DNA of 64,000 bases from a virus. The position numbers and the translations under genes are program-made. Numbering within the stretch: position 1 is the stretch's first letter; every line of letters begins with the position of its first letter. Shown one piece after another: positions 17,015-52,534 of this stretch. The notes under the pieces were generated by a model that saw only the letters and a list, made by a program, of their open reading frames with translations, was not told the DNA's origin and did not search any database. The stretch spans positions 110,042 to 174,041 of the IMG/VR virus record IMGVR_UViG_3300042887_005324; one strand, 5' to 3'.

Positions 17015-17209
17015 ATGATTATTATTGAAATCGAACAAGGAAAAGATGGACTTGAGAAGTCGTTGAAAAAGTATAAAAGAAAATTCGACAAGCTTAAAAT
17101 TATGAAATCTCTTAGAGATAGAAAATATTACAAAAAGAAATCTGTCAAAAGAAGAGAAGAGATTAATAAAGCTATATATGTTCAACAAAAATTTAAATCA
17201 GAAGACTAA
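17015..17209 (+). CDS. rpsU: ribosomal protein bS21 (phage-encoded, Bacteroidota type)
   Basis: 64 aa basic protein; LEKSLKKYKRKFDK...LRDRKYYKKKSVKRREEINKAIY matches the bS21 pattern. Confidence 0.9.
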   Translation: MIIIEIEQGKDGLEKSLKKYKRKFDKLKIMKSLRDRKYYKKKSVKRREEINKAIYVQQKFKSED

Positions 17210-17616
17210 TGGGATTTTTCAAAAGGTTTATTACTAAGGACTTAATACTTGCACAAAAAAATTGTGAGAGTGTATTGAATTTATTAGAAGCAGATGCAGT
17301 AGTCTTTGATACTTGGTCATCTAACTTCTTCAAAAGATTTGATGACAATTATAACGATTATCAAGAAAAAAGACAAAAAAAGATTGAACAATATCAGTTC
17401 TCATCTTCTTATGCAAATATACAAGAATTTGACACACATCATATTTCTAATATTTTAATAAATCTCAAAAATGAACCTTGTTGGATCGATATACATGTTT
17501 GTCTCGAAGCATTTAAGCCGGTTGAGATATCATCTAGAATAAGTGGTCAGTTTGAATTACTTCGTGAATTTTGTATAAATCTGATTGAAAATAAACTCGA
17601 GAATGGATTTCAATAA
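17209..17616 (+). CDS. hypothetical protein
   Basis: 135 aa ORF coupled to rpsU (TAATG overlap). Confidence 0.65.
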   Translation: MGFFKRFITKDLILAQKNCESVLNLLEADAVVFDTWSSNFFKRFDDNYNDYQEKRQKKIEQYQFSSSYANIQEFDTHHISNILINLKNEPCWIDIHVCLEAFKPVEISSRISGQFELLREFCINLIENKLENGFQ

Positions 17617-18325
17617 AAATTATTATTCTATTTTAGGATTGAATTCTAATTCAACTGAAAAAGAAATAAAGAAGTCTTACTATAAATTATCTTTTACACA
17701 CCATCCTGACAAAGGTGGTGACGAATTAATTTTCTCTGAAATAACAGAGGCATATGATATTTTGATGGATGAAAAATCTAGAGAAGAATATGATAAAAAA
17801 AGTAAATGGGGTTCAAATTATGATGAATCAATTGAACTTTTGAACTATGAGTTTAGTAATACAGCAAAAGGATGGGATGAAGAAAAACTAACTGGTTGGA
17901 TAAATGAGAATCAATTAAATATTTTAATATACATAGATGATTCATTTGATGGTAAAGTTGAATACGAAAGATGGGTCACCTGTAAAAAATGTGGAGGAGA
18001 TGGTAAAGACACAACATCTAAAATTCAAATAAAAGATGAAAATGGAAACATTTTAAAACTTTTTGATGGATCAGAAGGATGTGATTTTTGTGAAGGAACT
18101 GGTAAAAACTGGAAGAACGAATCTTGTTATTTTTGTGCAGGTAAGGGTAAAGTAGGTTTTACTGATTGTCAATCCTGTAATGGTGAAAAAAGAATAAAAG
18201 GAAAACAAAAACTAAAAGGTATAAAGTTTCCAAAAAAAGAAAAGGCACACAAGATTGAAGCAATGGGTCATGTGTCTAAATTTGAAACAGGCAAAGTTGG
18301 TTGTCTTTGGTTAATTAAAAAATAA
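17603..18325 (+). CDS. dnaJ: DnaJ-like co-chaperone (J domain plus zinc finger)
   Basis: NYYSILG...HHPDKGG J domain; four CxxCxGxG/K repeats; lacks most of the C-terminal domain. Confidence 0.85.
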   Translation: MDFNKNYYSILGLNSNSTEKEIKKSYYKLSFTHHPDKGGDELIFSEITEAYDILMDEKSREEYDKKSKWGSNYDESIELLNYEFSNTAKGWDEEKLTGWINENQLNILIYIDDSFDGKVEYERWVTCKKCGGDGKDTTSKIQIKDENGNILKLFDGSEGCDFCEGTGKNWKNESCYFCAGKGKVGFTDCQSCNGEKRIKGKQKLKGIKFPKKEKAHKIEAMGHVSKFETGKVGCLWLIKK

Positions 18326-21300
18326 TTATACGCCATCTCCACCAGTTGGAGCGTCTTCTGGACTTCTAGATGCTTGACTATAATTATTAAGTTGACTTGG
18401 ATTCCAAGGACTTGGTTGAGGTACTGACGAAATTCCACCTTGTTGGCTTAAAGGTTGTTGTTGAACAATACCTTGTGTATCAAAATTCAAATTTACATTA
18501 CCAATAAAGTCAAAATTAGAATCAGTATAATCAATATAAGGAGCAGTTGCTTTTAATGGTATCTTAATTCCTTCGTATATACTAGTAGCAGTTGCATATT
18601 GGAAGAAAGGAACCATATCAACTTCAGTAAATGAAATATTTCTAAATGAAATTCTAGTAGTAAGATTTGAAGTCGGTGGATAATTACTTGTATCAAATGT
18701 TCCTATTGAAATATTTTCGTTTAATATACGATTATCTATTACAAGATCCAAATTCTGTCTATTATAGAAGAATTCAACTTTTTTTGTAAGTGAAGTTTCT
18801 TGATGATTAAAGTCAGTAAGTAAAATTTTAGAGTATCTATTTATAGTTTTAGAACTCGTAGCACCACTAAAATCAGAAGAAGCAATATCAAGTTCAATTG
18901 CATAGTATCTGTCTACTAAAGTTGTTATATCATTGTTTCTCAACTCAAAACTATGTCTTTTTGAAACTCTATATTGACCAAGACCAGGACCTACACCACT
19001 TTTCGTCTGTGCTCCACCATCCGAAAAAGTGAATACTAATCTACCAGCTGTTTGTGAACTTCTATTCGAATCGATTTTAATTCCTTTAGCAGGTGTTATT
19101 TGAATTTCACCGACACCATAGTTGAAACTATAAGTTGCAATTCTTGAAGTAATATCATTTACTTCCCATCCATCATTTGTGAAATTAGTAATAGTAAGTT
19201 GTGGACCGAAAAGTTGATTTGAGTAGTTGTTACTGAACTGTTTAAAGAAAAATCCATTATCAGGCATTAGATTTTCAAATCTAGAGAACTTTGTACCAAG
19301 TTTATAATCTCTACTAACAGTAGCAGCAAAGTCTCTAAATGTTGATTGACTTTCTAAGACATCTAATGTTACAAGTCCATCTAAATTTGGTAGATTTTTG
19401 ACAACAGATTGTGTTGTGCCATCAACTTGAGGAACTTCAGAAAAGACTACTTCAGGTAAATTCAAATTACTTTTTGAAAAATTCTCATAAACAACATCCA
19501 TGAAGCTCAAATATTTCTTCTCATTCTCTAATCCAACATTATTATCCACAAAACTCATTTTCTGAACTAATCCGGTGTTGTAAATTGAATCTGGATTTAA
19601 TGGATTAGAAGATTTATTTGAAGTAAATCTACCACCATCAATCTTACCATCAATCATCTGAGACTCATACATCTGTGTAATTTTCGGATATCCTTTAAAT
19701 AAACCATTATTCCAAACTCCTCTGAATCCGCCATTTAAGAAAGCTCCTGATAACCAAATATTTTTCGTAACATATATTAAGTGATTAAAAGAATCTCTTA
19801 CTATTCTTCTTATTGGGAAGTTACTCACTAATTTAAGAACCACAATGTTATTTGTATAATCAATATTAATAATTCTAAACCAATCCTTAATTAATTTTCT
19901 TTGTTCATTAACATCAATTGCTACTATATTACCGACTGAAACTTTATCACCTAAGGAAAGATTTGTTATTTCATCTATTGATTTCAATGCGACATTCCAA
20001 GTAATATCATCGATTTGTACCGTACTTAAATTAGTTGTTGGTGTTAAACCATCTATACCAATCACATCAGAAAATAAGATATAATCTTGTTCGTCAAACC
20101 ATTCGGTATTGCCTCTGAAACCATTGTTCCAAACACCATTTTCCCAAATACCGGACCTAAACACACCATTACCATAATTAATACTTACTAAATTACCGTT
20201 ATCTGAGGTTGCAGTTGGTCGTAAATAAGCATCATTTGGAAGTGAAGCGGTGTTCCCAACTACTAAGTTCTGTATAACTACATTATTATATGAAGGGTGA
20301 TATTCAGTTGATTTCTTTGTAACTTGAGCCGAAAGAATTCTTAATATACCTTGTGTAGCTTTTCTTATCCAGAATTTATTACCTATAACCTCACCATCTG
20401 AGTTCTCAGCAAGTAATTGTTCAGCAGTTGGTGTGTAGTTTAGTGTAATTTCATAAATTTTTGGATAGTAATTTCTTTTTATTGTACTACCACTGCCTGT
20501 TGTGTAACTATCACTATCTAAATAAGCAGTATATGGAGTTAGAGCGCCGATACCGAACTCAACACCAACCTGAGTTATTAGTTCAACCGATAAGACTAGA
20601 TTAATTTCGTAGGTTGTTGAAGCATCATCAAATATTTCTAAACTCGTAAGATTAATAACATTACCAACATGTCCATACAATCTCCTACTAGGAGCAATGT
20701 CAGGTCGTTGTGTTGAGTTGTATCCAGCTACAACTGCAGGTGATGCTACTTCAGGTAGATCTCCGCCTTTTGTAAAATAGTGAGTATCACTGATAGTAAA
20801 TATTTGATTATTGGTTTGTCTAAGTGAAAAAGTAGATCCTTTATTCCAATAAGATCTATCCAATTCCCCAAATACTCTCGTTTTTGAGGCGTTGGTTCTG
20901 ACTTCGTTATAGGTATAGACGGTACTACTTCCTGGAATTGTGTAACCAATTACTCCATTATATTTTAGGTCGTCATTATATATGATTGTGTTAGCATCAG
21001 CTCCGTACATAACCATTGAAGCAGTAGGTGTGGTGAAGAAAAAATCTATGTTCGCGGTCAAATTCGGGTCAGTCAGTAGACTCTGAGGCGCGATAGATGA
21101 ACTAAAGGCATTTATAACATGTAATGAAGAAGTACCAATAAATCTTGAAACATTTCTTATTAAGTCTAATTGTTTTCCTTTCAAAACATACATTGCTCTT
21201 GTATTAGACCAAGTTGCTAAAGAAGTATAATCAAATGGTGAACCGTTCCAGTTACCATTTCTCCATAAACCATCTTCCCAATAAATATTCTCGGCAGTTC

Positions 21301-24300
21301 CATAATTCCAAGTACCATTCGTCCATTTTGCACCAGCCATATATCCGGAATTGAAAGTTCCTTTCTTCCACTCAGCGTGATAAAAAGAACCAGTACCGTA
21401 GTTCGAATTAAATTTACCATTTTCCCAAACAATTGATGCAGTTGAAGCAAAAGATGATTTCGAGAAAGAACCTGTGAATGTTCTATCAACATACGGATTA
21501 AATATACTGCTATCAAAATTACCATCTTGGAATGAACCAGATAAAAATAGAGAATTTTTAAATGTTCCTTGAACATGACTAAAAGTACCACTAAGCCAAA
21601 GCATATTATCAAAAAGAGCCAAATTATTAGTTGATACTTTTTGATTGTCTTTAGTAAGCTCAGTAAATATTATACCATCACTTTTGATTTTCTCTGGTGT
21701 ATCAATAACATTACCACTTCTCCAAAGACCATAATAACTTGATGTGAAAGAATTAGCAAAGTCAAACTCACCTGTTGTATCAGTTGGTGAATCTGAAAGA
21801 CTAAAAGTTCCACTTCCTAAGAAACTACCTTTATTAAAAGTTCCACTGTACCAATATCTTCCAGCAAAAATACCATCATTAAACTCACCAGTATACCAAA
21901 CTGAGTTAGTCGCAGTACTTGAATTACCAAACTCACCGCCATTAAATTTACCATTTTCCCATCCATAAAAAGAAGCTGTCAAAGCAGTACCAATGGGTTT
22001 AACATTAGTGTAACCATATTCAGAAAGGAATTTACCTTTATTAAAATTTCCGTCTTTCCATCTAGCTTGTAAAGTAAGTTTACCACCATTAAAATCTCCA
22101 TTATACCAAATAGACTCATTTGTTGATTGTGACCCAAAACTAGTGAACTCACCATTGTCAAATTTACCATCTAACCAATATACACTACCAGATCCACCAA
22201 CCAAAGCATTTTCCACGATACCATTCTCCCATGTTGTGAAAGTTGCTGCAGTAGGAATATATCTTTGAAGACTACCAAGTGTAGTATTGGTATAATTTAA
22301 ATTTCTGGATCCAAGTATACCATTTTTCCAATCACCACCATACCAATCTGAATTATAAAATCTACCATTCTCAAATGTACCATCTGACCAAGCTGATTTG
22401 TAGAACTCTCCAGCTGAGAAAGTACCTTCAATCCAAGACATATATTGACTAGTTAAGTCATAGTTATAGTTAGAACCAGCTAAATATGTAGAAGTAGTAA
22501 GTCCCTTAGAATCAATGAAACTACCGTTGTTGAATATACCATCTAACCAATATGAACTTTTGAAAATTCCATTATTGAAGGTACCTTTATTCCAAATTGA
22601 GTTAAAAAATATACCATTAGTCCAAGTATCATTTATGAAATGTGATTTGTAGACTAATCCAGACTTGACATTGTTGTTTGAGTTTTTGAAAAAATGATTA
22701 ACTAATCTTAAAGTATTTGTATTATCAACATCAAGATTTTTATCTCTATTGTTAAATTCTGAATTTTCGATAGTAGAATTTTTAATAAGATTTCTTTTAA
22801 ATAATCCAGATACTATTTTAGAGTTATCTATTAGTAATGGATGTATAGAAATATAATTTGCTTTTTCTCCCTCATTAATTGATATTTCGTCGAACGTATC
22901 TGGCCAAACTTGGTTTGATTTTCTAGTGAGTGTATATCTAATATATCCAGTTTGTGAAATTTCTAGTCTACCACCGACCTGGTATCTACCAGATAAATCA
23001 TAAACAACTGGGTCATTATTCTTTCTAACTGAAACTCCACTCAACCAAACATCTTTGTTATTAATTTCAAAGTCAAAATAATTAGAAGCGACAATTTGTT
23101 GTGTTGGTGGAGTGCGGTGAGAGTAGAAAAACTTATCAGAAAGATATATATATATTCTATTCTCATCAGAACGTGATATTTTAAGAAGATTAGTATCCGG
23201 ATCAGTCGACAAAGCTTGATTTCTAGTAATTATATTTTGACTAATATTTACATTATCTCCACTCAACCAAGTTGAATTATAAAAAACACCAAATTTAAAG
23301 TCTGCATTATGTATATAAGTATTATTGAAAACTTTACTCAAAGTAGTAAAAGTTACTGGACTAAGTAAAAAATCATCACTGTATACTGTAGTGTTATTTG
23401 TGCTATCTTTCCAATATCCTAGTAATTTATGATCTATATCAATTGATGAGTAAACTGTCGTGTTAGTCTCAAAGGTATTATTATAATCAGTACCATTGTA
23501 ACTAACATAATATTTAATTTTATTATCATTTTTACTCTTGAAAGTAACAACAATTCTTTCATCTTCTTTTAATTCGTGATCAACATATGAATCTAAAATA
23601 TACTTAGTTTCAAAAGGTAAAATTATTTTTTGTTGTTCATCTAAGCTAGATAAAATATATTCTTTATTTACTCTTGAAATATAAAATGAGTTACTTATAT
23701 TTAATCTTAAAATATCATCATCTGAAATGTAAAGCTTAAGTATTCCTCTTACATAGTCAGTACCAAGAGATGATTCGTCTCTATTATATGACCAAATATC
23801 ACTTGCTAAAATTTTGATACCACTTTTATCACTATATTCACTAAGATTAGCTGTTGATTTAGTTATTTGACTGTTAATTAATTTTGAATTGTTTATATTT
23901 GATTCACTAATTTGACAATCTTGCAAAGTTGCATTATTAACACTTGAAAATTGAATATCACCAAATTTGATTTTTGCTTTATTAATTTTTGAAGGATAAG
24001 AGAAAGTTAATCCATCATAAAAATTATCTATTGCTTTACTAAAATTAGATAGAGAGTATCCAAAATTAACCCTTTCAAATACTCCATTATTAACCTCGGA
24101 TGCAAATAAATTTGTGTCAACTACTAAATTTCTACCAAATCCTTTATTATTAGTAAAGTCAATACTCTGAGTTCTAACTTTTTGATTCGTAGTCTCATTT
24201 AATGAAAGCTTAGAATAATAAGTTTTTTCATTATCTGCAGATTTAGAATTCATTATACCAAAATTCCAGTTAGAATTAAGAAATATACCACTTTGCCAAG

Positions 24301-25306: not shown

Positions 25307-25420
25307 CTAAAGATAATTATAACATTTTGTTTATATATTAAATACTTTGGTACATCTATAATTAATAATATTAAAAAAGACACATCAACTTAAATTTTTT
25401 TAAAATATATAATTGTGATT

Positions 25421-25636
25421 ATGTATTTAATATGTAAAAATAATTTTCAAACATTGAATTCATCCGAATTTACTTTTGAAAAAGGATTAACATATAAAAT
25501 AGAAGTCAACAATTTTTATTGTGATGAGAACATAACATTCCTAATAAATGACATCGAGATATCACTTTCTGTTTTAAAAAATTATTTTGTTAATATCGAA
25601 ACTTGGAGAGATTTACAAATAAAAGAATTATTATGA
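25421..25636 (+). CDS. hypothetical protein with C-terminal RDLQIKELL motif
   Basis: Ends TWRDLQIKELL; ATGA overlap with rpe. Confidence 0.6.
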   Translation: MYLICKNNFQTLNSSEFTFEKGLTYKIEVNNFYCDENITFLINDIEISLSVLKNYFVNIETWRDLQIKELL

Positions 25637-26283: not shown

Positions 26284-26340
26284 TCTATATTATTTTTCAA
26301 AAAATTAACTTTTCTCTAACACAATACTAATATATAATTT

Positions 26341-27542: not shown

Positions 27543-27568
27543 ATTTTGTGTTTAGTTTTAATTATATA

Positions 27569-30894: not shown

Positions 30895-30946
30895 TTTCTT
30901 TAATTATATTTTTATTTTATATTTATTTTAATTATCTTTGTTCATT

Positions 30947-31405
30947 ATGTATAATATACACATCATAGAAAATCAGAAAGAAAATACTGTACCAGTAACA
31001 CTCACTATTGTAAAAAATGGTAATAAGTTATTGATGGTTAAAGCAGTAAAGTGGTTCACTGGTTTTGGACTTCGTGAATCTAAAGATATAATTGATATGG
31101 TGGATAAAATTCCACAGATTATAAAGAAATATGCAACAACTGAAGAAATAATCGAACTACGAAAAGATTTATCTACCAACTCTGAGTGTTTATACACAAT
31201 TGATACGGTATCTGAATCAAGAAATAAGAAGTTGATTGAACTTGGTCTTGGCACAAAACAAGACTATATAGATGATTTAGTAGAAAAAGATTTACATACA
31301 CTTATCTCAAAAAGGTTTGATTATAGTGAACTTAAAAAGGTTTTAACAGAAAGATATAGTTTGATTAGTAAAGAAAATTTAGAAAAAATATATGAAAGTA
31401 ATTAG
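30947..31405 (+). CDS. ribosomal protein bL12 (L7/L12) C-terminal-domain protein
   Basis: NKLLMVKAVKWFTGFGLRESKDIID...PQIIKK matches the bL12 CTD (KIxVIKxVRxxTGLGLKEAKxLVE); no dimerisation NTD; TATCTTTG promoter at 30933. Confidence 0.7.
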   Translation: MYNIHIIENQKENTVPVTLTIVKNGNKLLMVKAVKWFTGFGLRESKDIIDMVDKIPQIIKKYATTEEIIELRKDLSTNSECLYTIDTVSESRNKKLIELGLGTKQDYIDDLVEKDLHTLISKRFDYSELKKVLTERYSLISKENLEKIYESN

Positions 31406-33746: not shown

Positions 33747-33773
33747 AAAAGTCCTGAAATAATCAGGACTTTT
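33747..33773 (-). terminator. intrinsic terminator after rpsA
   Basis: AAAAGTCCTGA-AATAA-TCAGGACTTTT. Confidence 0.8.
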
Positions 33774-33794: not shown

Positions 33795-34883
33795 TTATTT
33801 AGCAACTGAAAGAAAAATCTTTCTTGCTGATCTATCAACAGCGATAATTTTTACTTTTACATCATCACCAGCGTTGAACTTCTTTGAAGTCTTTTCTAAT
33901 TCAGATGTGTGAATCAAACCGTTTGTTTCTTCATCAAGAATAACAAGAGCTCCAAAAGGTTTCATATCTTTGATTTTACCATCAATTGTTTGACCAACTT
34001 TGATAGTGTCCCACAAAGACTCACGAAGAATTTGTGTCAAGATAATCTTATCTTTAATGATTTCTTTGATGTAGAATTGGATTTGGAATCCAGGTGTGAT
34101 TTGGTGAATACGATCTGCCCATTCTGGAACGATATTAGTCTTGTGAATCATACCAGTCAAACAATCGTTGAACTCAACGAATACTCCGAACTGAGTTGTA
34201 CCAGTTACATTACCAGTGTAAACAACTCCATACTCAAGTTCTTTGATAGCTTGTGGAATAAGAGTTTGTAGATATTTTCTACGGCTCACAATGTAAGTTC
34301 CTTCTTCTTTAGCAAAAGATTCGATCATTACTTCAAAAGTTTGACCAACAATTGTCTCAGGTGATGATAACTTATTGATACCAGCTAATGTATTTGGCAT
34401 AAATCCTGGTAGAGTAACACCTTCATACTGAATTTCAACTGCGTATCCAGCTGGAGTAAGTTCTTTGACATGAGCAGTGACTGAAACTCCTTCTTCTAAG
34501 TTAGTGAGGCTAGCTCTTGCTTTAGACTCATAAAGTTCAGATAAACTTCCTTTGATTAAATAATCGTTTTCATCAACTTCACTAATCAAAACATCGATTG
34601 ATTCACCGATATTTGTATTTTTCAAATATTTAGCTTCACTTGGTCGGTTTTCAATTCGAACATAATCTTTGAATCCACCGTCAAAAGTGAAAGAATCACC
34701 AGAAATACCTACATATTTCACATTCATTACAGCACCTTGTATTGGTGTTCTCATTTCATAAGCATCGTATAGAGATGCCATTTTTTGTCTTTCTTGTTGA
34801 TAAGCTTCGACTGCATTTACATCGAGAACATCAACATCATCAAAATCCATCATTCGTGGATCGTACTTTAATTTTTTACCCAT
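33795..34883 (-). CDS. rpsA: ribosomal protein bS1-like (about 4 S1 domains)
   Basis: Tandem S1/OB motifs: GNVTGTTQFGVFVEF...GMIHKTNI; GKIKDMKPFGALV...GLIHTSEL...VKVKIIAVD..RKIFLS; IVSRRKYL linker. Confidence 0.88.
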   Translation of the reverse strand: MGKKLKYDPRMMDFDDVDVLDVNAVEAYQQERQKMASLYDAYEMRTPIQGAVMNVKYVGISGDSFTFDGGFKDYVRIENRPSEAKYLKNTNIGESIDVLISEVDENDYLIKGSLSELYESKARASLTNLEEGVSVTAHVKELTPAGYAVEIQYEGVTLPGFMPNTLAGINKLSSPETIVGQTFEVMIESFAKEEGTYIVSRRKYLQTLIPQAIKELEYGVVYTGNVTGTTQFGVFVEFNDCLTGMIHKTNIVPEWADRIHQITPGFQIQFYIKEIIKDKIILTQILRESLWDTIKVGQTIDGKIKDMKPFGALVILDEETNGLIHTSELEKTSKKFNAGDDVKVKIIAVDRSARKIFLSVAK

Positions 34884-34911: not shown

Positions 34912-34939
34912 TTTCTATTCGTTTAGTGTTAAAAGTTTA
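34912..34939 (-). promoter_or_regulatory. putative phage-sigma promoter of rpsA
   Basis: TAAACTTTT-13nt-TAGAAA on the minus strand. Confidence 0.5.
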
Positions 34940-43556: not shown

Positions 43557-43637
43557 TTTAGAGGATATATTTTTGTTTATATATTAATTATTTTAGTGTT
43601 CTCATTTATTATTTAGTAATGATAAAGAGATTTGAGA

Positions 43638-45518
43638 CTAAATAGACAAAATAGAACTGTTTGACAAAACATTAAAATTATACTCTACCTTTTTGTCAAA
43701 TTCAAAAATATAATTTACAAATCCCTCATCATCACCAAATCTACTTTCAACAACTAATGGATTTAGAGGATTAGAATTATATGCCCAATCTTCTAAACCA
43801 AGTTCAACGAATCTATTTTTAATAGACTCATTATAGTGATTACTAATGGTTCGAACTCTTCTTTGTATATCTTTTCTTGTAAGATTTTGAGTATTAGAGT
43901 TGTGATAATATTGTAAGTACAACATCTTAGGTATTTTGACCATTTTTGTATGTAAAAATGTACGAACAATCAGTTCATAGTCATCAACGATAGTAAGTCT
44001 TCTGTTGTGCCCACCAATAGATAAATAGAATGACTTTTCCCAAGCTCTAAAGTGATTTGGAACTCCTACAATATGTCTAATAGTTTTAGGGTTAATATTA
44101 GCACAATCTACTGAATTGTATTTTCTACCAGCATAGTATTCTTCTTTATATTTACCATATCCAAATGAAAAGTTATCACCATAATTGAGTGAATTATGTT
44201 GCTCATCTATTTCAGCACAATTTGAATAAACAAATTTAGCGTCTGGATATTCTTTGAATGCTTTTACCATTAGACTTAAAGCTTCTGGTAATAAAAAGTC
44301 ATCGTGATCAAGTTCCATAATATACTTACCACGAGATAAAGTAGCTGCTCTATATTTTGATTCACCAACAATACCTCCAGACTTTTTCTTAAATTCATAC
44401 ACACTAATTCTAGAATCTTTTTTAGACAACTCTTCAGCAATTCTTAAAGTTTTACCACCATCGTTTGAATCATTGACTAATACCCACTCCCAATTTGTAT
44501 AATTCTGACTTCTCATACTTTCATATGTTCTCAGTAATTTTTCACCAATGTTATAGATAGGAGTAAAAACACTGACAAGTGGAGTCTCATCATTTGATGA
44601 ATTTAATATGTAATTCATTGCACAGAAATAAGAAGATTCACCAGTTTTCTCTTCTATCTCATTAAAGTGTAACCATCTACCTCTAACATCTAGGCAATGA
44701 TGACTGAGTTTCGGAAAGTTAGCGAAACTATCAGAAACAGTAATAATCGAATCAGGATTAAAATCTTGAATTACATTATCGATATTTTCATCAGTCAATA
44801 CCGATAGTGTATTGAGTTCGGTTGATTCATAATCGACTATAAACCTTGAGTTTAAATTTACATCACTATTTGTACCAACTATAAGAATTCTTGGTAAAGA
44901 ATTTAATTTTCTCTTTTCTATAAAGTTATAATAACAAAGGACTTTTTCTATAAAGAAAAAATCTTCATTATTCTCATTGTACAGTTTTTCAATAAAGTTA
45001 CCGTCAGCAATATACTTCATTGGTTCTAATCTAGATTTTCCTATTAAATCTCTTCTTAATAGAAATTGAGCCATATCTATATGTTGAACTCTGGTATTTT
45101 CCGGTTTTGCTTCTCTTATATCAAGTCCTGTGAAATCTTTACCTCCAATCTTTTGACTAAAAATAAATCCTCTTTTTTCTGGATTTTTCTCAATAGATTG
45201 GTAAATAGTGTCATAAAAGTCTTCGTGAATTATATTATCATCGTCTAAAACATAAACAAATCCTTCTTCAATTTGTTCTAAACAAGCATTGATCATTAAA
45301 TGTCCATGATCACCAGGAACACTTTTAATGAATTTGATTATGACTTCCTTATTATATAATTCAGTAAGTAAATCTGAATTTATATCACTAAGTGAATTTG
45401 TGTCAAATACAACAAACCAATTTATTTTGAATTTTTCAGACTTACTATAAATTGATTCTTTAACTTTTGATAGATTTTCGGGTCTTGAACATCTTGTGAT
45501 AATGTTAATAATATTCAT
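43638..45518 (-). CDS. tandem GT2-family glycosyltransferase
   Basis: Two GT-A domains: IITRCSR...YVLDDDNII and VSVFTPIYN...VNDSND...ELDHDD...DDYEL. Confidence 0.88.
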   Translation of the reverse strand: MNIINIITRCSRPENLSKVKESIYSKSEKFKINWFVVFDTNSLSDINSDLLTELYNKEVIIKFIKSVPGDHGHLMINACLEQIEEGFVYVLDDDNIIHEDFYDTIYQSIEKNPEKRGFIFSQKIGGKDFTGLDIREAKPENTRVQHIDMAQFLLRRDLIGKSRLEPMKYIADGNFIEKLYNENNEDFFFIEKVLCYYNFIEKRKLNSLPRILIVGTNSDVNLNSRFIVDYESTELNTLSVLTDENIDNVIQDFNPDSIITVSDSFANFPKLSHHCLDVRGRWLHFNEIEEKTGESSYFCAMNYILNSSNDETPLVSVFTPIYNIGEKLLRTYESMRSQNYTNWEWVLVNDSNDGGKTLRIAEELSKKDSRISVYEFKKKSGGIVGESKYRAATLSRGKYIMELDHDDFLLPEALSLMVKAFKEYPDAKFVYSNCAEIDEQHNSLNYGDNFSFGYGKYKEEYYAGRKYNSVDCANINPKTIRHIVGVPNHFRAWEKSFYLSIGGHNRRLTIVDDYELIVRTFLHTKMVKIPKMLYLQYYHNSNTQNLTRKDIQRRVRTISNHYNESIKNRFVELGLEDWAYNSNPLNPLVVESRFGDDEGFVNYIFEFDKKVEYNFNVLSNSSILSI

Positions 45519-45591
45519 TATTATTTGATTACTTTTTTTTATTTTATACAAATTGACATTGAATGTTGAATTTTATCTTATATTTGTAATA

Positions 45592-45885
45592 ATGACAGAT
45601 TTAGAAAAAATATTAGATTCCAATCCTCAACTCTATAGTATTTCAGATTCACTTATCTGTGAAATTTGTGAAGAAATATTTAAAATTAGATTAAATTATG
45701 ACAAGACTTTTGTAGATAACGGAATGGACGAATTAGACTCTATTGGGCTAGTAATGCAAATTGAAAAAAGATTGAACATTTCAATACCGGATGAAGTCAT
45801 TGAACTGATATTCAATCTTGAAGAAAAACCTATTAGATTTACTCAAATTATTAGAAATAAAAAAATAGAAAATTTAGGTATTTAA
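45592..45885 (+). CDS. acyl-carrier-protein-like protein lacking the canonical phosphopantetheine Ser
   Basis: DNGMDELDSIGLVMQIEKRLNISIPDE versus ACP DLGxDSLDxVELVMxLExxFxIxIPDE; TATATTTG at 45579. Confidence 0.72.
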   Translation: MTDLEKILDSNPQLYSISDSLICEICEEIFKIRLNYDKTFVDNGMDELDSIGLVMQIEKRLNISIPDEVIELIFNLEEKPIRFTQIIRNKKIENLGI

Positions 45886-45910
45886 ACTTGTTTTTTTAAG
45901 AAAAATCACT

Positions 45911-45918
45911 TATATTTG
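45911..45918 (+). promoter_or_regulatory. Bacteroidota sigma-A promoter of ligase
   Basis: TTG...20 nt...TATATTTG, 5 nt before ATG. Confidence 0.6.
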
Positions 45919-45923
45919 TAAAT

Positions 45924-47762
45924 ATGATTAAACAATTAATTGAAAACATAACAAAAGCTAACGAAGCCTATCGAGTTGGTAGTCCAATAATGTCAGATCA
46001 AGATTATGATATTTTAATTGATAAACTACAATCAATCGATCCTAATAATGACTTACTAAAATCAGTTGGTCACAAAATACAAGACGATTCCCGAAAAAGA
46101 AAGTTGCCAATTCCTATGGCTTCTATGAATAAAGTAAAAACCATAGATGAAATAAATGATTGGGTAAGATTAAAAATGATAAATCCTAATCAAACTGTTG
46201 TAATTACTCCTAAATACGATGGGTTGTCTCTTTGTGTAAACGAATTAACAAAAGAAGCTTGGACAAGAGGCGATGGTGAATTTGGACAGAAATCAGATAA
46301 TCACTATAAACTAATTGGTAATAAATTAGGTGAAGTACTTATGTATTCATTCAAATTTAACTTCACATTTGGTGAAGTTATGATGCCAAAGAAAGTATTT
46401 ACAGAAAAATATTCTCAAGAATTTGCTAACCCAAGAAATCTGGTTGCTGGTCTTCTTAATTCAAAAGAAGTTACCGAAGCCTTAAAAGATTGTGTCTATA
46501 TTAAATATGGAGCAGTAAGTGACTCTAAACATTTCTTTAATACAAAAAGTGAAATTCTTAAAGAGTTAAATGTTGGTCAAGTTATCAAAGTACCATTTGA
46601 AGTAATTCCAATTAATCAAATCACTTCTGATTTACTTAATAATCTATTCAAAGCTTGGTCTGAGGATTTTGAAATCGATGGTTTAATTTTAGAAATCGAT
46701 TATCTACCTACTCAGGAACAATTAGGTCGTGAGACATCATCTAACAATCCTTGTTTTGCAAGAGCATTTAAGTCTCCAGATTTTGAACAAACTGCAGAAA
46801 CTACAATAACTGGTATTACTTGGAACATTTCTAAGCAAGGTCTTCTTAAACCAACTCTTCATGTTGATCCAATAAAATTAGATGGTGTAACTATTTCTAA
46901 TGTAACTGGAAATAACGCAAGATTTGTAAAAGACCTTCAGTTAGGATCTGGTGCTAAAGTAAAAATCAAGAGAAGTGGTATGGTTATTCCAATTATCTAT
47001 GAAGTGATCGAAGGAGTCGACTTTCAAATGCCAAACATTCCAAACATTGATTGGAATGAAAATGGTGTAGAACTAATTACTCTTGAAGAAACAGATGATC
47101 AAAAGTTCAAACAATTGGTTTCTTTCTTTGAAATTCTTGAAACAGATAATTTTGGAGAAGGTGTAATTAAACAATTATGGGAAGCTGGTCATAAAACAGT
47201 TAAAGACATTTTATCATTAACACAATCTGACTTAGAACAAATTGATAGATTCGGTAAGAGAAAATCTCAAATAGTCTTGAAATCAATTAAACAAGCTACT
47301 ACTGATGTAAGTCTCTCTAAGCTTCAACATGCCACTGGATTATTCAAAGGTTTAGGTAGTAAAAAGTTAGCATTGTTAGAAGGTTTTAAAAATAAACCAA
47401 CAATCGATCAAATCTTAGAAATTGATGGTTTCGCTGAAATCTCAGCTCAGTCATATATTGATGGATATGATAATTTCTTCCAGTTTATTAGTGATTTACC
47501 AATCACAATTCAAGAAAAAGTTGAGTCAGTAAAGGTATCAAATGATTTAGATGGATTGAATTTTGTATTCACTGGCGTAAGAAGACAAGAGCTTGAGGTA
47601 ATTATTGAGTCTCGTGGTGGGAAGATTGGTAGTAGTGTAAGCAAAAACACAACACATCTTGTAATGAAATCAGTAGGTTCTGGTTCTTCAAAGGAAAAGA
47701 AAGCAATGGATCTTGGTGTAAAAATTATGACTGTTGAACAATTAGAGGAGTTATTAAAATAA
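45924..47762 (+). CDS. ligA: NAD-dependent DNA ligase
   Basis: Ia domain (Y...MSDQDYD), KYDG adenylation motif, TRGDG, NPRN, DG, OB domain, HhH, C-terminal BRCT. Confidence 0.95.
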   Translation: MIKQLIENITKANEAYRVGSPIMSDQDYDILIDKLQSIDPNNDLLKSVGHKIQDDSRKRKLPIPMASMNKVKTIDEINDWVRLKMINPNQTVVITPKYDGLSLCVNELTKEAWTRGDGEFGQKSDNHYKLIGNKLGEVLMYSFKFNFTFGEVMMPKKVFTEKYSQEFANPRNLVAGLLNSKEVTEALKDCVYIKYGAVSDSKHFFNTKSEILKELNVGQVIKVPFEVIPINQITSDLLNNLFKAWSEDFEIDGLILEIDYLPTQEQLGRETSSNNPCFARAFKSPDFEQTAETTITGITWNISKQGLLKPTLHVDPIKLDGVTISNVTGNNARFVKDLQLGSGAKVKIKRSGMVIPIIYEVIEGVDFQMPNIPNIDWNENGVELITLEETDDQKFKQLVSFFEILETDNFGEGVIKQLWEAGHKTVKDILSLTQSDLEQIDRFGKRKSQIVLKSIKQATTDVSLSKLQHATGLFKGLGSKKLALLEGFKNKPTIDQILEIDGFAEISAQSYIDGYDNFFQFISDLPITIQEKVESVKVSNDLDGLNFVFTGVRRQELEVIIESRGGKIGSSVSKNTTHLVMKSVGSGSSKEKKAMDLGVKIMTVEQLEELLK

Positions 47763-47774
47763 CTCATAAAAAAT

Positions 47775-47803
47775 TAAACTTTTAATATATATAATCATAT
47801 AAA
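47775..47803 (+). promoter_or_regulatory. putative autoregulatory promoter of phage sigma
   Basis: TAAACTTTT-14nt-TATAAA with an overlapping TAATATATA at 47783. Confidence 0.5.
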
Positions 47804-47895
47804 TTAAGTATATTTATATACATTAACGGCAATTAGAGAGAATTAAGAAATTGATATATTGATTATATATCAAAAAACAAAAATAAACGGCAATT

Positions 47896-48507
47896 ATGGC
47901 AGAAGAAAAAGAAAAAACAGTCACAACATTCTCAGAACATGAAATCATTTTCAGAGAAAGAACAGGAAATGATTTTACATTTTTTTACAAAAAGTATTAT
48001 CCAAAGTTAATCTACTACACACAAAAAATGTGTGGAGACTCACAAAAAGCAGAAGATGTCACAGTAGAATCTTTTATGACAGCTTTTGAAAAAATCGAAA
48101 AGTACGAAAAAGAAAAAGCTCAATTCTCAACTTGGCTATTCACTATTGCTCGTAATATAATGTTACAAGACATCAAATCAACTCGTAAAACAATTTCAAT
48201 CGATGTTGAATTAGACGAAGAAGGTACAACTCTTAAAGACTTCATCGAAGAAGAAGAAGATAATTCTCACCTTACAAATCTTAATATCAAAAAAGCTGAT
48301 ATTATGAAAAAACACATTTCTGAACTAAAAGAACCTTATAAATCAGTTATTGAAATGAGAGAAATTCAGAAAATGGCTTATAAAGATATCGCAGATAAAT
48401 TAGGAAAAAATTTATCCACGATAAAAAGCCAAATTCGTAACGGTCGAGCTATACTTATATCACAGACTCAAAAAGAATTTGACATTCTTGAGAATATGTA
48501 TTTATAA
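47896..48507 (+). CDS. ECF-type sigma-70 factor
   Basis: Region 2 (AEDVTVESF...FSTWLFTIARN) and region 4 HTH (YKDIADKLGKNLSTIKSQIRNGR). Confidence 0.9.
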   Translation: MAEEKEKTVTTFSEHEIIFRERTGNDFTFFYKKYYPKLIYYTQKMCGDSQKAEDVTVESFMTAFEKIEKYEKEKAQFSTWLFTIARNIMLQDIKSTRKTISIDVELDEEGTTLKDFIEEEEDNSHLTNLNIKKADIMKKHISELKEPYKSVIEMREIQKMAYKDIADKLGKNLSTIKSQIRNGRAILISQTQKEFDILENMYL

Positions 48508-49269
48508 ACTTAGTTTTAAGAAAAATGTTAGTGTATGATCGAGTGGTTTAATTGAACTATTTATTGAAGATGAATAGGTTTGATAGACCACTTGGTCATT
48601 CACACCAACAGAAACTCCTTTTTTTAACAGATATTCTAAACTGGTATTAAGCCTACCATTTATATTATCTTTGAAATCAATTATTTTCCCATTACTCTTT
48701 ACAGTATAGAGAGAAGGCTGAAAAAATCCAATTGATGAAAATTTAATACTGTTTTTCTTATATACAAATTTCAGTCTCGTTGAAGACCTTAAAGCAAAAT
48801 TGTTAAATTCGTCACCAAAGTTTGATAAAAGATATTCTGGCAAAAACAGTTGAGATAAATCAATTTCAAGATTAGAATTTTTAACTAGTTTATGTCCCAA
48901 TCCCAATCCTAAAGATCCTCTCAAATCTATTTTTCTCAAAAAAGATTGTTCAGACTCATTGAAAAATATGAGTCTCCATTCATTTAATCTTCTTGTATAA
49001 TTAATTGAATTATAAAATTCTCTTTCTCTTATTTTGTAGACTTGATTTGTATTTTGAACTTGTGAGTATTGAAAACTAGAATTAACTGAGAGTTGATTTT
49101 TTTTGTTTTCGGCTATAATTTCAGGCTTTATATTCAGTGAATAGAAGTTAAAGTTTCCAGCTGTATAATTACCACCAATATTTAAGTTTTTTTTAACTAC
49201 TAATGAATCTGTTTGTGATAATAAGCTAAGACTGAAAATTGTGAAAAGTAAACAAAATAGATTTTTCAT
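48502..49269 (-). CDS. outer-membrane beta-barrel protein (DUF481-like)
   Basis: Signal peptide MKNLFCLLFTIFSLSLLS|Q; GNYTAGN, alternating beta strands, GLGLGHKL, terminal beta strand. Confidence 0.65.
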   Translation of the reverse strand: MKNLFCLLFTIFSLSLLSQTDSLVVKKNLNIGGNYTAGNFNFYSLNIKPEIIAENKKNQLSVNSSFQYSQVQNTNQVYKIREREFYNSINYTRRLNEWRLIFFNESEQSFLRKIDLRGSLGLGLGHKLVKNSNLEIDLSQLFLPEYLLSNFGDEFNNFALRSSTRLKFVYKKNSIKFSSIGFFQPSLYTVKSNGKIIDFKDNINGRLNTSLEYLLKKGVSVGVNDQVVYQTYSSSINSSIKPLDHTLTFFLKLSL

Positions 49270-49302
49270 ATACAATATATATTAAACTTAAAAAAATAAA
49301 TT

Positions 49303-49632
49303 ATGAGTATGATTACATATGCTACTGAACTAAATTCAGATAATTTTAAGACCACAATTAGTAATAATGAACTAGTTGTTGTTGATATCTGGGCTAAATG
49401 GTGTGGTCCGTGCAAAATGATATCACCAATTATTGATGAAGTTGCGGCTGAATTCGGAGAAAAAGTATTAGTCGGGAAACTTGAAACTGATCCTAACAAA
49501 GAATTAGTTGGTGAATTAGGTGTTAGAAATATCCCAACAATTTTAATCTACAAAAATGGCGAAGTTGTTGATCGACTTGTTGGTATGAAAAATAAAGCTG
49601 ACATAACAGAAACAATAAACAAATACATCTAA
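49303..49632 (+). CDS. trxA: thioredoxin
   Basis: WAKWCGPCK active site, cis-Pro IPT. Confidence 0.95.
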   Translation: MSMITYATELNSDNFKTTISNNELVVVDIWAKWCGPCKMISPIIDEVAAEFGEKVLVGKLETDPNKELVGELGVRNIPTILIYKNGEVVDRLVGMKNKADITETINKYI

Positions 49633-49660
49633 AAAAAACCACTCAAATGAGTGGTTTTTT
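49633..49660 (+). terminator. intrinsic terminator
   Basis: AAAAACCACTCA-AA-TGAGTGGTTTTTT. Confidence 0.8.
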
Positions 49661-49685
49661 AATTTAATATCACTATATTTGTAGA

Positions 49686-50114
49686 ATGATTGTTAATAGA
49701 AAAGCGAGATTTGAATATCATATTCTCAAAGAATACACGGCTGGTATACAACTTTTAGGGTCTGAGGTTAAATCTCTACGGTCTTCTAATGCTAATATCT
49801 CAGAGTCTTATTGTTATATTTGGAATAATGAGATTTTCGTAAAAAATATGTTTATTTCAAAATACGAAGAATCATCTTGGTTGAATCATGATGAAAGAAG
49901 AGACAGAAAATTATTACTCAATAAGTCCGAAATAAGAGAGATTGTTAAATTGAATCAAGATAATGGTGTTACCATTATTCCACTTGAATTATTTATTGTT
50001 AATGGTAGATTCAAATTAAAAATTGGTGTAGCAAAAGGTAAGAAGAATTTTGACAAAAGGCAGTCTATAAAGGAAAGAGAAGTTAAAAGAGAGATTTCAA
50101 GAGACTATAAATAA
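49686..50114 (+). CDS. smpB: SsrA-binding protein SmpB
   Basis: NRKARFEY...AGIQLLGSEVKSLR...RKLLL...GKKNFDKRQSIKERE; TATATTTG at 49674, 4 nt before ATG. Confidence 0.95.
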   Translation: MIVNRKARFEYHILKEYTAGIQLLGSEVKSLRSSNANISESYCYIWNNEIFVKNMFISKYEESSWLNHDERRDRKLLLNKSEIREIVKLNQDNGVTIIPLELFIVNGRFKLKIGVAKGKKNFDKRQSIKEREVKREISRDYK

Positions 50115-50139
50115 ACTTTTTAGATTTTTTGACTATAAA
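50112..50139 (+). promoter_or_regulatory. putative phage-sigma promoter of ncRNA
   Basis: TAAACTTTT-13nt-TATAAA directly upstream of the structured RNA. Confidence 0.5.
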
Positions 50140-50144
50140 ATCAA

Positions 50145-50260
50145 CTTAATGTTCGAAAACCTGTGAACCACCTTATATTAAATATCATATAATATAATAT
50201 ATGAAGGGAGTTTTTAGATACAATGAACCTCTTAAATTTTTATTAAGAGGTTCATTTTTT
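50145..50260 (+). ncRNA. candidate 6S-like RNA (Flavobacteria 6S type) including its terminator
   Basis: Non-coding; nested pairings GUUC/GAAC, GAAAAC/GUUUUU, CCUU-AUAUUA/UAAUAU-AAGG with internal bubbles; own promoter and terminator; from memory resembles 6S-Flavo. Confidence 0.55.
50222..50260 (+). terminator. intrinsic terminator of ncRNA
   Basis: AATGAACCTCTTAA-loop-TTAAGAGGTTCATT followed by a T-tract. Confidence 0.8.
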
Positions 50261-50304
50261 AGACAGATAAAAATTTGATATATAAACAAAAAACCCGCTA
50301 AAAA

Positions 50305-50460
50305 ATGTCAAATGAAGAATTAATTGAAGAAATTCTTGTTAGTTCCTATAAATTAGGTATTGATAAAGATGTATTTGAACTATCAAGAAAGTATGAAAAA
50401 AATCTACCAAGAGTTGATGCTTTTCAAAAAGCTTTTTACGAAATAAAAAAAAATTTATAA
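50305..50460 (+). CDS. hypothetical 51-aa protein (not in ORF track)
   Basis: MSNEELIEEILVSSYKLGIDKDVFELSRKYEKNLPRVDAFQKAFYEIKKNL; abuts the next ATG. Confidence 0.6.
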   Translation: MSNEELIEEILVSSYKLGIDKDVFELSRKYEKNLPRVDAFQKAFYEIKKNL

Positions 50461-50461
50461 T

Positions 50462-50659
50462 ATGATTAGACCAATAAGTGAAAGAGATTATGTCGGACTT
50501 ACTTTAATAGAAGCTGATGTTCAAGCTAGTGCAGATGGATACGAAATTAGAGTAGTGGAAGAAGATGGTGTATCTAGAATGCTAGTCATGGATGCAAAAT
50601 CAAATCGTCTAAATCTTAGATTAAGAAACAATATTGTAACCGCTGCTTATACTGGATAA
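50462..50659 (+). CDS. serine protease inhibitor-like protein (potato inhibitor I / I78 fold)
   Basis: YVGLTLIEA...IRVV...G...LVMDAKSNRLNL...IVTAAYTG fits the VG...EA...RV...TMD.R..R..L.....V.....G pattern. Confidence 0.6.
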   Translation: MIRPISERDYVGLTLIEADVQASADGYEIRVVEEDGVSRMLVMDAKSNRLNLRLRNNIVTAAYTG

Positions 50660-50661
50660 AA

Positions 50662-51345
50662 ATGAAGACTAAATTTTTATTTCTATTTTTATTGTTGTCG
50701 AAAACAATACACTCTGGAAGTTCAAATAATAGTTGTCAGTATTTTAATTGTTACTACACTGGTATAGATATATCTCACTATCAAGGTGATATAAAGTGGT
50801 CAGAAATTGACTCTACATTAGATTTTGTGATAGTTAAAGCATCTGAAGGTGAAAGCTTAGTTGATTGTAAATTCGAAAAGAATTGGAATTCAATTAAATG
50901 TTTAAAAGGTGCCTATCATTTTTTTAGACCACAATATTCTGGTGAAAAACAAGCTAACTTATTTCTTAATGTAGTTAATTTTAAGCCAGGTGATATAAAA
51001 CCAATAATAGATGTTGAATATTCCCATTACTGGAAAGATACAATAAATATTAAAAAATATATTGATAACTTAGTTTGTTTTATCTCAGTAATCAAAGAAA
51101 GAACTGGTGTTATGCCAATTATTTACACTAATCCTCTTTTTTGGTCTAAGTACATAGAAAATCATTATCACTTTGATCACATACTTTGGGTAGCAGACTG
51201 GAGAGATAGAGAAGAACCCGAAATACCATCTAAATTTCATGATTGGACACTTTGGCAGTATTCTGATAAAGGAACCGTAAAAGGAATTAAAGGTCCAGTT
51301 GATTTAAACTACTGTAAAGATTTGGACACACTATTAATTAAATAA
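50662..51345 (+). CDS. GH25 muramidase (endolysin-like) with signal peptide
   Basis: GIDISHYQG, VKASEG, GAYHFF, DVE, WQYS...VDLN; hydrophobic N-terminus. Confidence 0.9.
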   Translation: MKTKFLFLFLLLSKTIHSGSSNNSCQYFNCYYTGIDISHYQGDIKWSEIDSTLDFVIVKASEGESLVDCKFEKNWNSIKCLKGAYHFFRPQYSGEKQANLFLNVVNFKPGDIKPIIDVEYSHYWKDTINIKKYIDNLVCFISVIKERTGVMPIIYTNPLFWSKYIENHYHFDHILWVADWRDREEPEIPSKFHDWTLWQYSDKGTVKGIKGPVDLNYCKDLDTLLIK

Positions 51346-51374
51346 AAAAACCTCTCAAATGAGAGGTTTTCTTT
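51345..51374. terminator. bidirectional intrinsic terminator
   Basis: AAAACCTCTCA-AA-TGAGAGGTTTT between convergent genes. Confidence 0.8.
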
Positions 51375-52003
51375 TAGTATGTTAGAGGTACTTTATACTT
51401 TAATTTCTTTTCTAAATCACCGATAGATAATTCTTGACAATATTTATCTGCATCTTTAGGTACATTTGCAAACCAAAGAGCATGTGTTACTTTTTTTGTA
51501 GATAGTGAGACTACAACTTTCCAACAATAATCTGGTACATAAACATTATTACCAATCTTTTTATTTGAAAATACACCACCACATATAACTAAAAGTGAGT
51601 CTGTTTGTGATTCTTGTCTGATTTGTGTTTCCCACTTCTTCCAGATTCCTCTATTTAGATTTGGGTATTGAGGTAAACAATTATAAAATCTGAATGTTTT
51701 CTCATCTTTGACACAATCAAAAGCAAAATCAGCAGCGTTTGCTAAGTGACCCATATCAAAACCACTACCAGCATAATCTTTATCAGTAGCCATAGGTATT
51801 TTTGTATCATTCTTAAACTTAAATCCAGCTCTACTACAATTACCACCACCTTTGTAAACTTTATAAGCTAAATAAACTGGTTCTTTAATATCAATATCAA
51901 AGTAAGACTTGTAAAAACCAGTATTGATTACTGTATCTATTCCTTGTGAAAAGGAAATTATGGATACAAAAATAGTAATTAAAAGTGAAATTATTTTTTT
52001 CAT
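51374..52003 (-). CDS. exported DNA/RNA non-specific endonuclease (NucA/EndA-like)
   Basis: Signal peptide ...IISFS|Q; DMGHL...TFRFYNCLPQ...LNRGIW..WE; VPDYCWKV. Confidence 0.88.
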   Translation of the reverse strand: MKKIISLLITIFVSIISFSQGIDTVINTGFYKSYFDIDIKEPVYLAYKVYKGGGNCSRAGFKFKNDTKIPMATDKDYAGSGFDMGHLANAADFAFDCVKDEKTFRFYNCLPQYPNLNRGIWKKWETQIRQESQTDSLLVICGGVFSNKKIGNNVYVPDYCWKVVVSLSTKKVTHALWFANVPKDADKYCQELSIGDLEKKLKYKVPLTY

Positions 52004-52386
52004 ATTCTTCTGTTGTTATTTATTGGCATATCAGAGACAACTTGAACTTGTATTCCGAAATTATGACCATCTACATCTAAATCTCGATATTCAGTATTAG
52101 AATAGTTGATATTATTATTATCAAAAGTTATTGATTTTGGCCCATATCTTCTTTGATGTTCTCTTGCTCTTTGAGATTCGATTTCTCTTTGTTGAGCTGC
52201 AAACATCTCATCTACCGTCATATTATTATACGGGTTATCTAGCTGTGGATTTGGTATTGGATTATTAAACTCAGTTTTATAACCATACTTAGCAAGAAGA
52301 TTTGCTGCTTCACTACTTGTAACTTCAGTTGATTTAGTATCAACTTGTTGTGGCTCGATTAGTCTTACTTCAGGTCTATTATACAT
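52000..52386 (-). CDS. hypothetical protein
   Basis: 128 aa ORF; TAATATATA 5 nt before ATG. Confidence 0.65.
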   Translation of the reverse strand: MYNRPEVRLIEPQQVDTKSTEVTSSEAANLLAKYGYKTEFNNPIPNPQLDNPYNNMTVDEMFAAQQREIESQRAREHQRRYGPKSITFDNNNINYSNTEYRDLDVDGHNFGIQVQVVSDMPINNNRRI

Positions 52387-52462
52387 AGAACTATATATTA
52401 AATAATTTTTTTATGTAAAATATCAAAACAAAGGATTATTTTTGTAATATATACACATACAT

Positions 52463-52534
52463 TGCGGGATAGAGCAGAGGTAGCTCGCCAGGCTCATAAC
52501 CTGGAGGTCATTGGTTCAAATCCAGTTCCCGCTA
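52463..52534 (+). tRNA. tRNA-Met(CAT), initiator (fMet)-like
   Basis: Cloverleaf: acceptor (T)GCGGGA/TCCCGC(T) with 1:72 mismatch, D stem GAGC/GCTC with A11:U24, anticodon arm CCAGG-CTCATAA-CCTGG, T loop TTCAAAT; CCA not encoded. Confidence 0.92.

Follow-up and report, generated by a model that had tools for sequence, protein, structure and literature searches.

Why would a phage carry several parts of the translation machinery, and would these parts rebuild the ribosome of its host? The question is raised by a 64,000-nucleotide stretch of phage DNA (hereafter the window; GC 30%), the last 64 kb of the linear 174,041-bp IMG/VR record IMGVR_UViG_3300042887_005324, which encodes ribosomal protein bS21, an S1-like protein, a protein with the C-terminal domain (CTD) of L12, SmpB and an initiator-type tRNA. 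A first-pass annotation had taken these genes for an unusually complete set serving staged ribosome remodelling. We consider it probable, though well short of certain, that they act as a supply-and-bias kit, which keeps phage mRNAs that lack a Shine-Dalgarno (SD) signal or are leaderless translated with no staged rebuilding of the ribosome; the likelihoods given here for this reading, for counter-defence, for ordered remodelling and for off-ribosome roles refer to readings that overlap in part. The five genes would then be separately acquired and separately transcribed members of a translation-support kit of the clade. The fresher points are the predicted leaderless programme and an anchor-less L12 family, rather than the gene list.

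The phage is a giant freshwater phage of the Mahaphage clade. The best GenBank matches of its S1-like protein are in LR756502 (642 kb, 62%) and LR745206 (635 kb, 60%), followed by LR756504 (636 kb), LR756501 (735 kb) and Lak phages, and a 658-kb contig carries an S1 ortholog of 72% identity with the same neighbouring genes. Synteny with LR745206 and LR756502 extends to more than 20 window genes, at ~30-70% identity, so that membership follows from gene order and best hits shared with 634-735 kb genomes and Lak phages. Al-Shayeb et al. 2020 (PMC7162821) place their four largest genomes, of 634, 636, 642 and 735 kb, in the Mahaphage clade and predict Bacteroidetes as their hosts; from the matching sizes we infer that LR745206, LR756502, LR756504 and LR756501 are those genomes. 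Judged by these matches, the record probably represents roughly a quarter of a megaphage genome of this clade, with a Bacteroidota host.

Promoter classes and predicted leaderless transcripts

Three promoter motifs are real in this contig, and from motif and gene content they can reasonably be assigned to late (L), middle (M) and early (E) expression. The L motif, TAATATATA, has ~50 times the density outside coding cores that it has within them and lies before large genes of structural type. The M motif, AAAC and, 18 nt further on, [CT]ATA, was counted 17 times in gaps vs 3.5 in shuffles and precedes the genes for a single-stranded DNA-binding protein, an SbcC-like operon and an extracytoplasmic function (ECF)-type sigma factor of the phage (47896..48507, plus strand; motif at 47776-47802), which is a candidate reader of M promoters. 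The E motif corresponds to TAHHTTTG, the housekeeping -7 box of Bacteroidota, which lies 4-5 nt before the start site (PMC6847099). A generic scan for E. coli-type sigma-70 promoters returned 29 sites vs 31 in shuffles and was rejected.

Distances from promoter box to start codon were bimodal. Counted over the whole contig and loci L001-L007 and L165-L172, phage loci that are related and hence not independent, the box lay 3-7 nt before the ATG in 26 of 53 E and 53 of 102 L cases and 8-14 nt before it in only 1 and 3, respectively, with the remainder at ≥15 nt (binomial P = 3e-15 for the leaderless peak in the E class and 3e-31 in the L class). In the control, ~320 kb of the genome of Segatella, which is a gut Bacteroidales and not the true host, 2 of 65 E boxes fell at 3-7 nt (Fisher P = 4e-9 vs phage). 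About half of the phage genes next to a promoter, smpB and the L12 fusion gene among them, are therefore predicted to be leaderless, a feature that the first-pass annotation had missed. SD sequences were not enriched (6 of 166 genes vs 8 in the control window), and the phage mRNAs, without an SD signal, would come in two kinds, those with A-rich leaders and those with none.

Several of these traits resemble the SD-less initiation of Bacteroidia (PMC9976891, PMC13000457, PMC6847099), namely bS21 of the Tyr54 type, A-rich regions without SD and the TAHHTTTG box. Host leaders, in contrast, are mostly longer than 10 nt, whereas about half of the phage transcripts are predicted to have none: in Flavobacterium johnsoniae, where transcription starts 4-5 nt past the box, 87% of leaders are above 10 nt, and in Bacteroides thetaiotaomicron leaders below 10 nt make up only 3.7%. 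Literature searches on leaderless transcripts in Bacteroidota or jumbo phages gave nothing about the Mahaphage clade. The difference matters because the proposal that phage S1 and S21 bias ribosomes towards phage mRNA had lacked, in SD-less Bacteroidota, any feature by which phage and host mRNAs differ; a predicted leaderless share of ~50% vs a few percent in the host control supplies one.

bS21 and a four-domain S1

The bS21 gene (17015..17209, plus strand) encodes 64 amino acids of the Bacteroidia type with no SD upstream, and its product matches the family over its full length (PF01165, E = 3e-9, 36.8 vs a cut-off of 27 bits; TIGR00030, 34.7 vs 28.95 bits), with bS21 proteins of Bacteroidota as the best PDB matches. 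Its Tyr55 aligns with Tyr54 of F. johnsoniae bS21 (7jil_z), and a tyrosine stands at this position in all seven of seven bS21 orthologs of the clade. Tyr54 of Bacteroidia bS21 stacks on A1534 and masks the anti-SD (PMC9976891). Since this residue is kept, phage bS21 is expected to behave as the host protein does and to keep the anti-SD masked.

No promoter belongs to the gene itself; the closest convincing one, an M-class AAAC-N18-TATAA (13999..14025, plus strand), lies ~3 kb upstream and 5 nt before the open reading frame (ORF) at 14031, where it heads a same-strand run that includes SbcC-like (PHROG), bS21 and DnaJ-like genes. In LR756504 and LR756501, bS21 stands directly behind an L motif; its promoter class thus differs between relatives and is not conserved. 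The phages of Chen et al. 2022 (PMC9723584), which are likewise freshwater T4-like large phages, also carry a Bacteroidetes-type bS21 with the aromatic residue at Tyr54. However, their genomes are 293-331 kb and hold no other ribosomal proteins, and their bS21 lies among terminase, portal and capsid genes and is expressed late, whereas that of the window sits between SbcC-like and DnaJ-like genes behind a middle-type promoter. In Bacteroidia hosts rpsU is often preceded by a strong SD that serves autoregulation, a signal that the window gene lacks and the LR756501 gene has: the region upstream of the latter (L013:1470-1492) combines a late-type promoter with a strong SD (AAGGAGGA) and resembles the autoregulation signal of host rpsU.

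The S1-like gene (33795..34883, minus strand) encodes 362 amino acids that are collinear with residues 20-345, i.e. domains 1-4, of E. coli bS1. The modelled structure has an N-terminal helix and four oligonucleotide/oligosaccharide-binding (OB) folds, with bS1 on the 30S subunit as the top Foldseek hit (E = 2e-22). Identity is 25-28% to the six-domain bS1 of Bacteroidota and 60-80% among proteins of the clade, and neither the cut-off of the rpsA equivalog TIGR00717 (105 vs 577 bits) nor the six-domain length is reached (362 vs 588-600 amino acids in host S1). The N-terminal extension is shared with the bS1 of Bacteroidia hosts, which unlike the phage protein has six domains and ~590-610 amino acids; helix 22-41 aligns with the host N-terminal helix. 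The family has at least 120 full-length members of the same length and 61-96% identity to the window protein, with homologues reaching the Lak phages. On these alignments the protein is best described as a truncated, diverged and conserved bS1 paralog. It lies behind a degenerate M-class promoter (AAAC-N17-TAGAA, 34913..34938, minus strand), which predicts a leadered transcript and has cleaner copies before the S1 orthologs in L002, L006 and L009; a terminator-like hairpin with a T-run (33747..33773, minus strand) lies directly 3' of the gene.

Under the supply-and-bias reading, bS21 and the four-domain S1 would be platform components interchangeable with the host pair, which they would supplement or replace. 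In F. johnsoniae bS1 needs bS21 in order to stimulate SD-less initiation (PMC13000457), and for this reason the phage pair would most simply sustain initiation on leadered phage mRNAs.

Initiator tRNA, SmpB and the supply of translation

The tRNA-Met(CAU) gene (52463..52535, plus strand; CCA end not encoded) has the marks of an initiator, with a U1.U72 mismatch, G2-C71, C3-G70, A11-U24 and A73. Its anticodon stem, A29-U41/G30-C40/G31-C39, keeps two of the three G-C pairs, with A29-U41 in place of the first. At least 120 bacterial stretches, Prevotella, Alphaproteobacteria and Verrucomicrobia among them, have an identical anticodon arm, and by this comparison the arm appears to be a common natural variant. 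An L-class promoter (the motif given above; 52445..52453, plus strand) ends 9 nt before the tRNA, and the same motif precedes the LR745206 ortholog. A second tRNA-Met(CAU) (record positions 93,381-93,454, minus strand) has a paired G1-C72 and was rejected as an initiator, being of elongator Met or Ile2 type; it sits behind a host-type -7 box.

SmpB (49686..50114, plus strand; 142 amino acids) is well supported (PF01668, E = 3e-54; equivalog 185 vs 130 bits) and has an intact C-terminal tail with GKK and DKR motifs, aligned to residue 140; its homologues, too, reach the Lak phages. Two loci with SmpB, L035 and L036, were left out as their context looks unrelated. A host sigmaA-type -7 box (TATATTTG, 49674..49681, plus strand) lies 4 nt before the ATG, which predicts a leaderless transcript, and the box is conserved in LR756502 and LR745206. 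No transfer-messenger RNA (tmRNA) was found in this contig or, above the Rfam cut-off, in the complete LR745206, LR756502 and LR756501 with their SmpB genes, in searches that did not include two-piece tmRNA families; LR756504, Lak-A1 and LR756500 do have one above the cut-off. A weak tmRNA-like stretch in LR756501 was not called by ARAGORN and was discarded. Right after smpB, positions 50113-50260 (plus strand) hold a self-contained element of an M-class promoter, ~100 nt and a long terminator hairpin, which has no Rfam match and is not present after smpB in LR756502 or LR745206.

These genes suggest how supply might be raised. In E. coli, leaderless mRNAs are translated far better when additional fMet-tRNA is supplied (PMC9031893), and a late promoter in front of an initiator tRNA would make sense in this light: more fMet-tRNA would be on hand when the cell fills with late mRNAs, half of which are predicted to be leaderless. 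SmpB, made early, would add ribosome-rescue capacity, working through host tmRNA in a sub-clade that seemingly has none of its own. The net effect of the kit would be a host ribosome output that is maintained and biased to phage mRNA.

Several points weigh against this account. The transcription starts are predicted from motif spacing, and for the L motif the spacing to the start site is assumed. E. coli bS1 mildly inhibits leaderless translation, so that S1 and the initiator tRNA may pull in opposite directions. The expression and ribosome binding of the phage proteins are predictions from sequence, and the initiator tRNA was not found in LR756502. With its 25-28% identity and an aromatic N-terminal motif of Bacteroidota S1 that is not clearly kept, phage S1 could act off the ribosome, a caution also raised in PMC7162821. 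A stronger version of the bias, which we regard as rather unlikely, is that the phage runs a leaderless-biased programme in hosts that rarely use leaderless mRNA and that the translation kit makes this profitable by shifting ribosomes to phage mRNA. Late initiator tRNA and early rescue would then raise free 70S ribosomes and fMet-tRNA, the four-domain S1 would displace the six-domain S1 of the host, and the L12-CTD protein would tether or titrate translational GTPases, including an EF-G-size protein of the phage.

An anchor-less L12 family

The gene of the L12-like protein (30947..31405, plus strand; 152 amino acids) most likely starts at ATG 30947. The product has an L12-CTD fold at ~12-88, an R-N-x-K-L tag helix at 92-100 and a three-helix tail. 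It matches PF00542 (33.1 vs a cut-off of 25.9 bits), and its fold aligns with L12 (8yeq: VIA, Z 8.2, root-mean-square deviation 3.1, 70 residues aligned). Among 50 family members K32 and K46 are invariant, L28, K35 and L42 nearly so, and R92 of the tag is invariant as well. Apart from the tag, the conserved residues align onto the factor-binding helix of L12, which binds translational GTPases (E. coli V66, K70, R73, L80 and K84). The N-terminal dimerisation and uL10-binding domain and the hinge are absent, with only 14 residues and no helix before the first CTD strand, and the TIGR00855 match is confined to profile positions 57-116 (30 vs 84 bits). Fold searches, which barely covered residues 99-152, gave no hit that would match the idea of the C-terminal helices as a circularly permuted N-terminal domain of L12.

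The gene is accessory. At the syntenic slot it is present in this record, L001, L170, LR745206 and LR756502 and absent from L002, L004, L005 and L172 (four of nine loci), where both flanking genes remain; a full-length bL12 is encoded elsewhere in the LR756501 genome, within a tRNA cluster. Because the uL10-binding domain is lacking and the gene is missing from four of nine slots, the sequence argues for an L12-CTD fused to an unrelated helical tail, which would be neither bL12 nor a stalk subunit. The genes taken by the first-pass annotation for five translation components are thus all real, and bS21, S1, SmpB and the initiator tRNA keep their identities, whereas 'bL12', without its anchor domain, does not hold as a GTPase-recruiting ribosomal component. 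In the supply-and-bias reading it would be an optional protein that is no part of the ribosome and presents the factor-binding surface as an adaptor or decoy; for either role the family is a candidate. A host sigmaA-type -7 box (TATCTTTG, 30933..30940, plus strand) lies 6 nt before its ATG and predicts a leaderless early transcript; in the ortholog of L023/L170 the box lies 4 nt before the ATG.

The L12-domain proteins of phages described by Mizuno et al. 2019 (PMC6375957) are comparable in that an L12 domain lies within larger polypeptides, the factor-binding residues are kept and the genes were gained and lost independently. Those come from small podoviruses of Proteobacteria, whereas the present family (~50 representatives of 129-176 amino acids) has a fixed layout in which the CTD is followed by an R-N-x-K-L tag and then a three-helix tail, and its window member is predicted to have a leaderless early promoter. 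No description of an anchor-less L12 fusion family was found in the literature searched. Automated 'L7/L12' calls in these genomes include it, and counts of phage ribosomal proteins are therefore overstated.

The fold comparison also bears on whether some of these proteins work off the ribosome altogether. In that case S1 would serve as an RNA chaperone or as a cofactor of transcription, the protein with the L12/ClpS fold would be an adaptor for a protease or scaffold, and the true translation parts would be limited to bS21, SmpB and the tRNA. The fusion scores Z 7.2 against ClpS and 8.2 against L12, which is a tie; it carries an R-[DN]-x-K-[IL] tag that is C-terminal in seven unrelated small proteins of the contig, and RNases and transcription factors, too, often contain S1 domains. 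Identity, however, is 23-28% to L12 vs ~10% to ClpS, the invariant K32 and K46 and the near-invariant K35 map on the L12 factor-binding helix, and the S1-like protein, collinear with domains 1-4 of bS1, still has the N-terminal helix. On balance we find a wholly off-ribosome role for both proteins improbable.

A different purpose, counter-defence, is suggested by the early genes. The phage proteins and tRNA would replace or shield targets of abortive infection (tRNA nucleases, ribosome-dependent mRNA interferases, proteolysis of S1 or bS21), and free L12-CTD would capture stalk-docking effectors. Both SmpB and the L12 fusion stand behind host-sigma leaderless promoters and would be made at once on entry, the patchy presence of the fusion fits an arms-race gene, and the contig has an NFACT-R domain protein and its relatives a GGQ release factor (RF)-domain protein. 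A CRISPR effector has been solved on the 70S ribosome with bL12, going by the title of PDB entry 8phj, and it is on this title that the effector link draws. Against this, neither a host nor a defence system was identified, and homologues of S1 and SmpB are clade-wide, unlike typical anti-defence genes. We hold counter-defence to be a doubtful explanation for the set.

In the contig, seven unrelated small proteins end in the tag R-[DN]-x-[KQ]-[IL]-x-x-[LI], which is internal and invariant in the L12 fusion. Four of them lie in the window (16257-16562, 16691-17011, 25415-25636 and 45553-45885) and three outside it. An acyl-carrier-like protein (PF00550; 45592-45885, plus strand) has the same C-terminal tag and a predicted leaderless host-type promoter.

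The gene set across relatives and the timing of its expression

As the first-pass annotation had noted, individual ribosomal proteins, especially bS21, occur in large phages (PMC9723584, PMC7162821), and its general idea of a phage that feeds or redirects host translation agrees with the model published for the clade (PMC7162821). That paper lists S1, S21, L7/L12, SmpB, tmRNA, tRNAs, EF-G, RFs and IF3 in huge phages, proposes that phage proteins substitute into host ribosomes and reports that S1-carrying phages rarely use SD. The set is not unusually complete. LR745206 has all five genes in the order and orientations of the window (bS21 at 296.7 kb, the L12 fusion at 313.1 kb, S1 at 315.7-316.7 kb, SmpB at 333.0 kb and the initiator tRNA, 88% identical, at 364.9 kb), and LR756502 carries four of the five. 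The complete relatives add further translation genes: all four encode a translational GTPase of EF-G size (665-726 amino acids) and a GGQ RF-1-domain protein (frame of 174-180 amino acids; entries at 583.8 kb in LR756502, 31.2 kb in LR745206, 67.0 kb in LR756504 and 184.3 kb in LR756501), and two of the four encode IF3, while IF1 was not found in the contig or in these four genomes. The original observation is mostly right, but the set is less complete than in published relatives of a known clade; it is a subset of the standard published kit of that clade, and the list of genes adds little new. In the clade and gene order the phage agrees with the Mahaphage repertoire, and the four-domain S1, the anchor-less L12 fusion, SmpB without tmRNA, the promoter classes and the predicted leaderless transcripts go beyond the accessible text of PMC7162821. 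Searches by tblastn (bS21 and the L12 fusion against GenBank phages) and an IMG/VR pattern scan gave no matches; this is a sensitivity problem, since hidden Markov model searches of the same records found both.

Nor do the genes form a group. In the window they are unlinked and spread over 35 kb, and in LR756504 and LR756501 they lie hundreds of kb apart; a functional cluster was rejected since baseplate, ligase and glycosyltransferase-like genes intervene and the five genes are dispersed in distant relatives. This dispersal bears on the staged remodelling first proposed, in which the early L12-like protein and SmpB, then S1 and bS21, then the initiator tRNA would yield phage-selective ribosomes. 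The proposal draws on three promoter classes that are real and, for several genes, kept in orthologs (E for smpB in three genomes, M for S1, L for the tRNA in two genomes), on a phage S1 that is strongly diverged from host S1 and conserved within the clade, and on a pelagiphage bS21 that is incorporated into E. coli ribosomes (PMC6375957). Of the different promoter classes first described for separate units, E for smpB and the L12 fusion, M for S1 and L for the tRNA stand; the exception is bS21, which lacks a promoter of its own and whose class changes among relatives. All genes of the genome fall into these classes, so that a spread over several classes calls for no particular cause. The L12-like protein lacks an anchor domain and can be dispensed with, bS21 keeps the anti-SD-masking tyrosine of the host, and phage mRNAs share the SD-less, A-rich leaders of the host, which leaves little to select on except leaderlessness. 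We judge staged remodelling quite unlikely. Under the supply-and-bias reading, timing would come from the ordinary three-class transcription programme of the phage, not from a dedicated remodelling cascade.

Two further translation-related loci were noted in the contig and its relatives. A stand-alone NFACT-R domain protein (PF05670, E = 8e-16; record positions 12,131-12,523), of a domain type related to ribosome quality control, is encoded behind a gene with a late-type promoter. In LR756501 (L009:25586-25739), two tandem tRNA genes with CUA anticodons lie ~5.6 kb from the S1 gene.

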